A stretch of DNA of 25,739 bases, from IMG/VR virus record IMGVR_UViG_2675903417_000004; one strand, written 5' to 3'. Source of the DNA: a virus. Lineage: Duplodnaviria > Heunggongvirae > Uroviricota > Caudoviricetes. Below are positions 15,561 through 15,645 of this stretch, in pieces (position 1 is the first letter of the stretch; every line of letters begins with the position of its first letter). Made by a program: the position numbers and the translations under genes. The notes under the pieces are model-generated. The model was given only the letters and a program-made list of their open reading frames with translations. It did no database searches and was not told where the DNA came from.

Positions 15561-15645
15561 ACAACAGGTAAGGGTATTTTGCGACGTCGGAGATCGCCGA
15601 GCTTGGCAGAGGGTTCGAATCCCTACGAAGTACCCTTACCGTTGT
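15561..15645 (+). ncRNA. tRNA-like structured element: 15-16 bp inverted repeat enclosing a T-arm-like GGGTTCGAATCCC hairpin (not a canonical tRNA)
   Basis: ACAACAGGTAAGGGTA (15561-15576) pairs with TACCCTTACCGTTGT (15631-15645); internal GGGTTCGAATCCC at 15611-15623; no D arm, anticodon arm or CCA. Confidence 0.3.

Follow-up and report, generated by a model that had tools for sequence, protein, structure and literature searches.

The DNA considered here is a viral sequence of 25,739 nucleotides (nt) from IMG/VR (record IMGVR_UViG_2675903417_000004; Caudoviricetes), referred to as the window, and the subject of this work is an RNA hairpin within it, element B, that directly follows a transfer RNA (tRNA) gene, tRNA-Thr. 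BLAST aligns nucleotides 14717-16507 to the P1-type phage-plasmids vB_EcoM-813R1, P1 and RCS47 at 97-98% identity. In the P1 record the homologous stretch is situated between dmt and ban, with the C1-controlled promoters P1ban and P2ban (Pban) and the operator Op72 at the dmt end, and with a 'dicF-like region', tRNA-Asn, tRNA-Thr, further genes, tRNA-Ile(CAT) and ban following on the same strand. The correspondence of dmt, an intrinsic terminator, the tRNAs and a DnaB-like open reading frame (ORF) in the window with this arrangement (Table 1) places element B inside the long untranslated leader of the ban operon. Between 14930 and 16270 the ORF list and folding reveal no credible ORF and a high density of RNA structure, made up of four hairpins of one family (A to D) interleaved with a tag module resembling that of transfer-messenger RNA (tmRNA), tRNA-Asn, tRNA-Thr and an STnc100-like small RNA (sRNA).

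Architecture of element B

The helix of element B begins two bases past the CCA of tRNA-Thr, where the first-pass annotation of this DNA had placed an inverted repeat. The repeat is there, and its reported length of 15-16 base pairs (bp) is an underestimate, because folding pairs 15560-15581 with 15626-15646 in 21 pairs that include two U-G and leave A15566 bulged; the gapless core is a 13-nt arm pair (15567-15579 / 15628-15640). The interval 15559-15648 folds with a minimum free energy of -41.6 kcal/mol (z = -6.05), a value that none of 200 shuffles attains, and the opposite strand folds worse (-34.4 kcal/mol). The helix encloses a 45-nt cargo in which the T arm first described as near consensus (GGG-TTCGAAT-CCC) turns out to be perfect (15610-15624). 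The T-arm motif GGTTCRANYCC is found four times in the window against 0.23 expected, namely in the three tRNAs and in element B. An anticodon arm and a CCA are absent, as had been stated, and a linker of 9-11 nt stands in place of the former. The accompanying statement that there is no D arm must be withdrawn, since a D-arm-like hairpin, GCGA-CGTCGGAGA-TCGC, occupies 15581-15597; its loop is similar to the canonical tRNA D loop (GUCGG.AGA), for example AGUCGGUAGA. On the far side of the T arm there is a 7-bp acceptor-like segment, beyond which CCCT takes part in the pairing of the longer helix. The D-like loop UCGGA (15587-15591) is complementary to the T-loop UUCGA (15614-15618), and RNAalifold pairs the corresponding alignment columns (30-34 with 58-62), which suggests an elbow-like contact between the two loops. 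Element B is a conserved, probably non-coding RNA module of the plus strand, and its architecture is best explained as the top half of a tRNA, in which an acceptor-like helix, a D-arm-like hairpin and a consensus T arm are present and an anticodon arm and CCA are not.

A first question is whether such an element is recognized as a tRNA. ARAGORN at its default or at a 90% threshold and Rfam at gathering score called only the Asn, Thr and Met(CAT) tRNAs, which upholds the earlier statement that element B is not a tRNA, and the Rfam tRNA model (RF00005) found no match on it even at E<=10. When the 95 nt alone were searched permissively, the best Rfam scores were those of mascRNA (14.9 bits, E 0.67) and tRNA-Sec (14.6 bits, E 0.99). 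Lowering the ARAGORN threshold yielded no credible tRNA. The single call at 80%, a 95-nt 'tRNA-Tyr(gta)', was rejected, as it shares 19 nt with tRNA-Thr and has a broken acceptor and D stem, and at 70% nine spurious calls appeared on both strands within 1.3 kb. Among tRNA properties element B therefore has a T arm with a UUCRANY loop, and lacks recognition by tRNA finders, an anticodon arm and a CCA or free acceptor end. Two further candidates were discarded. An integron attC site does not fit because the core GTTGTGR departs from GTTRRRY and there is no integrase context, and the Pas sRNAs do not correspond to the hairpins because they are terminator-bearing Hfq sRNAs; of that group only the likeness of the 16137-16270 unit to STnc100/PasD matters here.

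Conservation and covariation across phages

BLAST and pattern scans recover this 45-nt cargo from P1-like plasmids, from lambdoid prophages and from phages of the Uetakevirus type. The element is present in 609 of 5,426 complete E. coli genomes (~11%); for P1-like plasmids, 458 of the 631 matching E. coli records carry the B cargo and about 170 retain just the 3' arm and spacer. In lambdoid-type contigs a tR'-like terminator immediately precedes the cargo, and the genes for holin and lysozyme follow downstream. The short upstream RNA of one such contig (L088) scores as IsrJ (35.5 bits), and in another locus (L194) the cargo stands in front of sequence that matches the STnc100 consensus by eye. 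Enterobacter phage BUCT554 and similar Uetakevirus-type contigs carry the cargo without nearby tRNAs or tag module. No feature is annotated in RefSeq under the lambdoid or plasmid copies among the matches listed, and Rfam at gathering score, applied to the window and 12 related loci, reported only tRNAs and no family covering the hairpins.

Hardly any variation is seen in the cargo among 109 viral and ~55 true metagenome loci. The 17-mer CGAYGTCGGAGATCGCC, which forms the D-arm-like hairpin, is shared by all true homologues, and AGAGGGTTCGAATCCCTA, which contains the T arm, is identical in all but a few single-base variants; both are essentially unchanged also in the metagenome scan, the search pattern of which left the T stem unconstrained. 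A scan with a D-like 18-mer gave 130 matches, 113 of which carry the exact T arm. The remainder are mostly chance matches in GC-rich sequence, together with three relatives that represent a truncation at a contig end, a single T-loop mutation and a copy devoid of the T arm. When genome contigs were scanned with the short CGAYGTCGGAGATCGCC alone, the 120 matches were all fortuitous ones in GC-rich genomes, and none was a true homologue. Within the cargo only the linker varies, with 1-nt indels included.

The closing helix has diverged. Loci L194 and L198 hold an identical cargo inside largely different stem sequence, and across 22 distinct homologues 95.6% of closing-helix cells are paired, compared with 33-55% in controls with slid partners. 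Ten of the 21 closing pairs are altered on both sides, and none of 500 shuffles attains the covariation score. Many of the homologues are P1-like copies that hardly differ, and effectively independent lineages number ~15. The G-U pairs tie this RNA-level helix to the plus strand.

A hairpin family with exchangeable cargo

Element B is one of four related hairpins in the window. The first-pass annotation had listed a recurring 5'-arm motif, and the 14-mer ACAACAGGTAAGGG does occur exactly at 15109 and 15561 (0.08 expected in the window) with a partial, 14/16 copy at 16065. The three family copies implied by this count were one too few, since a fourth hairpin (C) with a fold z of -6.14 lies at 15783-15882. 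The conserved basal stem reads YCAYCACAAC-A-GGTAAGRGCATT / AGTGCTCTTWCC-GTTGTGRTG, and the arms of A-D follow (Y)CAYCACAAC-(A)-G[G/T]T[A/G]AG... / ...CT[Y]W[W]C-GTTGTGRTG around an exchangeable apical cargo. Helices of B type are 21-23 bp long, and those of A, C and D comprise 16-23 pairs. Hairpins C and D bear a T-arm-like GGGKTCATATCCC. On their 3' side the family hairpins are usually followed by GGTGAATGC and a small hairpin, and on their 5' side they are preceded by a small hairpin and YCAYCACAAC.

Table 1. Features of the window discussed in the text.
Feature	Position	Strand	Basis
dmt	12698-14716		
Intrinsic terminator, end of short 'dicF-like' leader RNA from Pban	14897-14926	+	terminator scan; P1 annotation
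tmRNA-like tag-template module (GGTTTTCGTCA ... tag frame 14988-15020 ... two hairpins)	14930-15107	+	Rfam tmRNA_permuted, 24.1 bits, E 0.005 in 511 nt
Hairpin A, arms CAACAGGTAAGGGCGCTG / CAGCGTCCTTTCCTGTTG	15108-15188	+	fold -37.9, z -4.86; repeat families D1, D4
tRNA-Asn(GTT)	15405-15480	+	ARAGORN, Rfam
tRNA-Thr(TGT), CCA encoded, 2 nt upstream of B; CCA able to extend B helix	15483-15558	+	ARAGORN, Rfam
Minus-strand ORF, P1 plp equivalent	15529-15906	-	ORF list
Element B, long hairpin with tRNA-like cargo	15560-15646	+	folding, homologue alignment
5' arm of B, CACAAC-A-GGTAAGGGTATTTTG, A15566 bulged	15560-15581	+	fold, repeats, alignment
D-arm-like hairpin of B	15581-15597	+	17-mer invariant in all true homologues
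Variable linker of B, in place of anticodon arm and variable loop	15598-15609	+	9-11 nt, 1-nt indels between lineages
T arm of B, AGGG-TTCGAAT-CCCT	15610-15624	+	identical in all but few single-base variants
3' arm of B, CGAAGTACCCTTACC-GTTGTG	15626-15646	+	fold, alignment
Hairpin C, 23-nt arms CACTACAACGTTGAGAACACTGG, T-arm-like GGGGTCATATCCC in cargo	15783-15882	+	fold -47.4, z -6.14; inverted repeat I1/I2
Minus-strand ORF, overlaps P1 upl region	15907-16236	-	ORF list
Hairpin D, shares GTAACGGGKTCATATCCCAATCTA with C	16063-16140	+	fold -32.7, z -6.47; repeat families D1-D3
STnc100/PasD-like sRNA unit and terminator, directly after hairpin D	16137-16270	+	Rfam RF02076
tRNA-Met/Ile(CAT)	17363-17438		
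DnaB-like ORF	from 17714		

The cargo is exchanged as a module and the scaffold is reused. The comparison with other P1-like elements that had been recommended shows the B cargo shared by P1-like plasmids and replaced in P7 and Ro157c2YLVW, where the same hairpin after tRNA-Thr holds an unrelated 29-nt cargo; the B cargo must therefore be accessory and not essential. RCS47 carries both cargos in tandem, with one extra unit, and a catalogue of the fetched loci contains at least ten unrelated cargos in the same arms. Loci L011 and L014 have another cargo type with a consensus T arm (GTAGAG-TTCGACT-CTCTAC), and in L197 a second cargo type combines GCGG-TTCGACT-CCGC beside the 3' arm with a CGGAGA loop. 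In an SSU5-like phage-plasmid of Klebsiella the family hairpins are interleaved with tRNA-Asn and tRNA-Ser, and in this unrelated plasmid one of them begins at the exact 3' end of a tRNA. In enterobacterial phages, family hairpins stand between the successive modules of long leader RNAs that are not translated.

The tag module upstream of hairpin A contains a frame (14988-15020; GCA AAC GAT GAT CTG ATG ATG GTA GCG GCC TAA) that translates as ANDDLMMVAA*; the E. coli SsrA tag is ANDENYALAA. The weak permuted-tmRNA match over the module follows the consensus UAAAUGCAAACGAU...GUAGC.GCCUAA, and the module as a whole has the pattern GTTTTCGTCA ... GCGACTTTGCGG ... AAAGATAAATGCAAACGA, ten codons, a stop and a hairpin. 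Its copies in the Klebsiella plasmid and in numerous lambdoid contigs encode at least 11 different tags, and the tags of the relatives all consist of ten codons ending in A-A/V-A or M-A-A. No tRNA-like domain is detectable with the module, and ARAGORN makes no tmRNA call in the loci that carry it, whereas it calls bona fide permuted tmRNAs in ~45 other viral contigs retrieved by the same pattern. These two-piece tmRNAs are found in IMG/VR loci L010, L015, L017, L028, L030, L081, L122 and ~40 others, jumbo contigs of 165-350 kb among them; their tags include ANDEQFALAA and ANDSVYALAA, and they may be genes of the phages themselves or the ssrA of a host at the end of a prophage. A 540-nt lambdoid stretch comprising the tag module and the hairpins on either side aligns, mostly over part of its length, to 244 places in E. 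coli chromosomes and 649 in E. coli plasmids, and among the matches listed there is no annotated feature on the chromosomal and most SSU5-type ones. Two by-eye resemblances were dropped for want of model support, one between the 3' half of the tR' terminator (GGGGCTT) and the tmRNA 5' acceptor strand, and the other between CAGCTCCACGA (~16040) and the tmRNA 3' end, CAGCTCCACGA being simply one of the small stems that precede the hairpins. The tag module is unannotated and does not figure in the tmRNA surveys consulted, in which phage ssrA is confined to mycobacteriophages and Bacillus phage G, that of DS6A consisting of the tRNA-like domain only (PMC4131195).

At the other end of the island, 16137-16257 matches RF02076 over model positions 31-147 below threshold, scoring 37.8 bits where the gathering score is 47 (E 2.9e-6 in a search of 1.6 kb). 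STnc100 and PasD belong to the Hfq sRNAs of prophages, a group in which some members mature from longer transcripts (bioRxiv 10.64898/2026.05.13.724894). The spacers after hairpins B and C are shorter. They open with GGTGAATGC and a hairpin, as the STnc100-like unit does, and close with a hairpin and YCAYCACAAC, as if they were tandem degenerate copies of that unit.

How would this leader be expressed? A promoter scan of 14600-17800 found no sigma-70-like promoter, and hence no sign that element B has its own, and the scan is weak because it missed the annotated Pban too. The terminator at the end of the 'dicF-like' RNA is strong and lies ~190 nt after Pban (14740-14926), so that expression of the tRNAs and ban would require read-through or antitermination. 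This layout resembles that of the lambdoid pR'-tR' short RNA, which in L088 scores as IsrJ-like, and the whole island of terminator, tag module, hairpins, tRNAs and sRNA gives the impression of a lambdoid late-leader cassette that was moved into P1. The island is separated from tRNA-Ile(CAT) by a variable cargo slot (16291-17335) that encodes a 78-amino-acid membrane ORF and a 275-amino-acid SPFH/Band 7 lipoprotein (Pfam E 1e-30), an arrangement also seen in RCS47 and Ro157c2YLVW; P1 has tciA, tciB and tciC there. The tRNA content of the island varies among close relatives as well, with an additional tRNA-Tyr in Ro157c2YLVW and a tRNA-Ser(TGA) in D6, P7 and the Klebsiella plasmid (L002 1753-1839; L003 2607-2693; L005 1966-2052; L006 2571-2657). 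In P7 and the Klebsiella plasmid the extra tRNA-Ser adjoins CAYCACAAC or a hairpin of the family, a position suggestive of recombination between shared arms. Elsewhere in the window, repeated and inverted copies of TGTGTGCTGGAGGG at 7929-8056, presumably the P1 RepA iterons, represent ordinary plasmid-replication DNA unrelated to element B.

Possible function and alternative explanations

We tentatively favour the reading that element B, a member of a family of swappable cassettes, is a mimic of the tRNA top half carried within a processing hairpin that is probably cut by ribonuclease (RNase) III. Upon derepression of Pban the leader would be transcribed as one RNA, and its long imperfect helices could be cut by the host RNase III, which acts on double strands. 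Such a cut would part the leader downstream from tRNA-Thr, the CCA of which may be partly engaged in the helix, and might free or stabilize the cargo as a compact RNA of ~60-90 nt. The D-like loop and the T loop would dock as in the tRNA elbow, and the resulting mimic might conceivably be bound by SmpB, TruB/TrmA, RNase P or another factor that recognizes the top half of a tRNA. Imperfect helices of 20-25 bp are the substrate type of RNase III, as known from T7 early RNA and rRNA precursors, and the roughly two-turn double-stranded helix of this type is found in element B and in hairpins A, C and D. It is only in this geometry that element B is RNase III-site-like. The first-pass annotation had suggested a tRNA mimic or an RNase P/RNase E processing element; mimicry and processing are both plausible, and RNase III fits better than the two enzymes then named. 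The canonical determinants of RNase P are U at -1, G at +1, an acceptor/T stack of 12 bp and RCCA at the 3' end. RNase P is weakened as a candidate because, although a stack of its type is present (7+4/5 bp), there is G at -1, U or C at +1 and no RCCA.

Several observations weigh against this reading. RNAalifold favours another interior pairing for the cargo, and because the cargo-internal helices never vary, covariation says nothing about them, so that what speaks for the putative inner helices is their agreement with the tRNA consensus. The determinants of RNase P are absent, with CCCU or CUCU in place of RCCA, and RNase III processing of element B is something we purely infer. Alanyl-tRNA synthetase requires G-U at 3:70, and charging with alanine is excluded because the equivalent pair (columns 20/74) is U-G in 19 of the 22 homologues, U-U in two and C-G in one. 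P7-type phages manage without the B cargo. Moreover, the sequence conservation of the basal stem across distant phages exceeds what RNase III needs, and could instead reflect recombination or a sequence-specific partner.

Comparison with known systems indicates which aspects are familiar. RNase III processing hairpins are known in phage polycistronic RNAs such as T7 R1.1 and in the processing stems of E. coli rRNA; like the hairpins described here these are imperfect helices of at least 20 bp with a bulge or mismatch between transcript units, but the family of element B differs in keeping the sequence of its basal stem in unrelated phages and in having a structured apical cargo that can be swapped. 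The T4 tRNA cluster contains small stable RNAs, species 1 and 2 (rnaC and rnaD), which are likewise non-tRNA structured RNAs co-transcribed with phage tRNAs, without a repeated hairpin scaffold. The mascRNA at the MALAT1 3' end (RF01684) is a non-tRNA cloverleaf-like fold with a consensus T arm inside a longer transcript; element B, of bacterial and phage origin, scores 14.9 against a gathering score of 42.5 bits with that model, has no anticodon stem, lacks RNase P determinants and has an acceptor-like helix ~14 pairs longer. YrlA (RF02553) shares the long stem and a tRNA-like domain with a T arm, but the element order differs, and in element B the T arm lies beside the 3' strand as in tRNA. 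The YrlA model does not match element B, its only match being a sub-threshold one over the real tRNAs at 15425-15542 (25.6 versus 69 bits), and no Ro/Rsr gene was seen in the 4.5 kb of ORFs around the element, to which this inspection was confined. A likeness in composition exists also to the tRNA-like domain of tmRNA, including that of DS6A (PMC4131195), which is phage-encoded in the latter, combines a T arm, acceptor helix and D-region without an anticodon arm, and has as a counterpart here a tag template in the same leader; element B differs by the absence of G3:U70, ACCA and any tmRNA model match (the permuted-tmRNA matches lie only over the tag module), and by its inconstant linkage to that module. 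Element B is thus not a member of the tRNAs, the tmRNA tRNA-like domains or YrlA. The cassette organization and the wide unannotated distribution are new, and tRNA mimicry and phage processing hairpins as such are known.

Could a less specific explanation suffice? The hairpins might simply keep a ribosome-free leader folded against Rho loading and exonucleases, with the T arm as a stable block that has no partner. The dense structure of the ORF-free leader, the free exchange of cargos and the lack of a T-arm cargo in P7 agree with such a general role, which we nevertheless regard as unlikely, since the 17-nt D-like and 18-nt T-arm segments have stayed invariant while the closing stems diverged. 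This constraint is greater than stability requires, and a second, independent cargo type again has a T arm and a CGGAGA loop. Nor does decay of a tRNA gene from the adjacent cluster account well for the element. The perfect T arm followed by the acceptor-like segment, the resemblance of the D-like loop to that of a tRNA, the differing tRNA content of relatives and the overlapping, weak ARAGORN call at 80% would be expected of a pseudo-tRNA; that call, however, reuses part of tRNA-Thr, the nine calls at 70% illustrate how readily such calls arise, the tRNA model finds nothing, and tRNA-Sec remains at 14.6 bits against a gathering score of 47. The anticodon-less form is unchanged in P1-like, lambdoid and Uetakevirus contexts, and its conservation together with compensatory changes in the helix argues for selection and not decay, so that the earlier suggestion of a decayed tRNA, at odds also with the reuse of the scaffold, now appears quite improbable.

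A relationship to tmRNA would make element B a tRNA-like domain or decoy partnered with the tag template 570 nt upstream, as a split RNA or for titration of SmpB. The ten-codon tag frame with its many variants, the weak permuted-tmRNA matches, the fact that element B holds the only T arm outside tRNAs in the window, the missing anticodon arm, the placement of B beside the tag module (111-138 nt up- or downstream) in several lambdoid contigs, and the existence of tRNA-like-domain-only forms that inhibit tmRNA (PMC4131195) all point in this direction. Yet no tmRNA model matches element B, ARAGORN calls no tmRNA in any of these loci, U-G replaces G-U at the 3:70 position, and there is neither a CCA nor a free 3' end; in addition, B occurs without the tag module in the BUCT554 group, L190 and L204, and the module without a T-arm hairpin in L064, L088 and L058. 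We consider the partnership improbable. Still less probable is a DNA-level element, in which the inverted repeats would be either a recombination site or the termini of a miniature mobile element, and the RNA fold would be incidental. The ~20-nt arms conserved around unrelated inserts, the mosaic distribution and the copy number that varies among close relatives, as in RCS47, would suit it, but the G-U pairs, which would be A-C on the opposite strand, are kept and covary, and every copy is oriented with transcription; this strand specificity and uniform orientation contradict a mobile element. The cargos are themselves structured RNAs, and no target-site duplication or transposase association was noticed in the sequences read. 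Finally, the minus strand over element B is annotated in P1 as plp, a 'putative lipoprotein', the window has the equivalent 125-amino-acid ORF, and one minus-strand frame is open over B in all variants. That frame nevertheless runs antisense into tRNA-Thr without a Pfam match, is shifted between lineages by the 1-nt linker indels, ends in an unrelated C-terminal sequence in P7 where the cargo is replaced, and has substitutions that track base pairing and not codons, all of which makes a protein gene scarcely credible and plp a doubtful annotation. Both minus-strand ORFs of Table 1 lie entirely over structured RNAs, lack Pfam matches and contain frame-shifting indels between lineages, and they are probably misannotations.

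Although P1 and the lambdoid phages are very well studied, a leader of ~1.4 kb still holds conserved structured RNAs without an Rfam family. No literature on non-coding RNAs in the P1 ban leader was found, and an RNA-seq preprint on P1vir leaves the region untreated; in the records examined the leader RNAs have no RefSeq annotation, and the doubtful P1 ORFs plp and upl are laid over them. A far-reaching and, in our estimation, rather remote hypothesis is that the leader islands of P1-like, SSU5-like and lambdoid phages encode a fragmented trans-translation system in which the tag template and element B, as a separate anticodon-less domain, are distinct parts. If true, template and element B, together or as SmpB decoys, would let the phage redirect or block host ribosome rescue and tagging. 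Such a tmRNA-like function would be without precedent in enterobacterial phages, and its split architecture would be new. The tRNA-top-half cargo and the tag template both point to the host translation and tRNA machinery, which is of current interest on account of tRNA-targeting anti-phage defences, and with ~11% of complete E. coli genomes carrying the element, whatever function it has would be widespread. The combination of a fixed stem with a swappable structured cargo suggests a general means by which phages package, process and exchange small RNAs beside their tRNAs.

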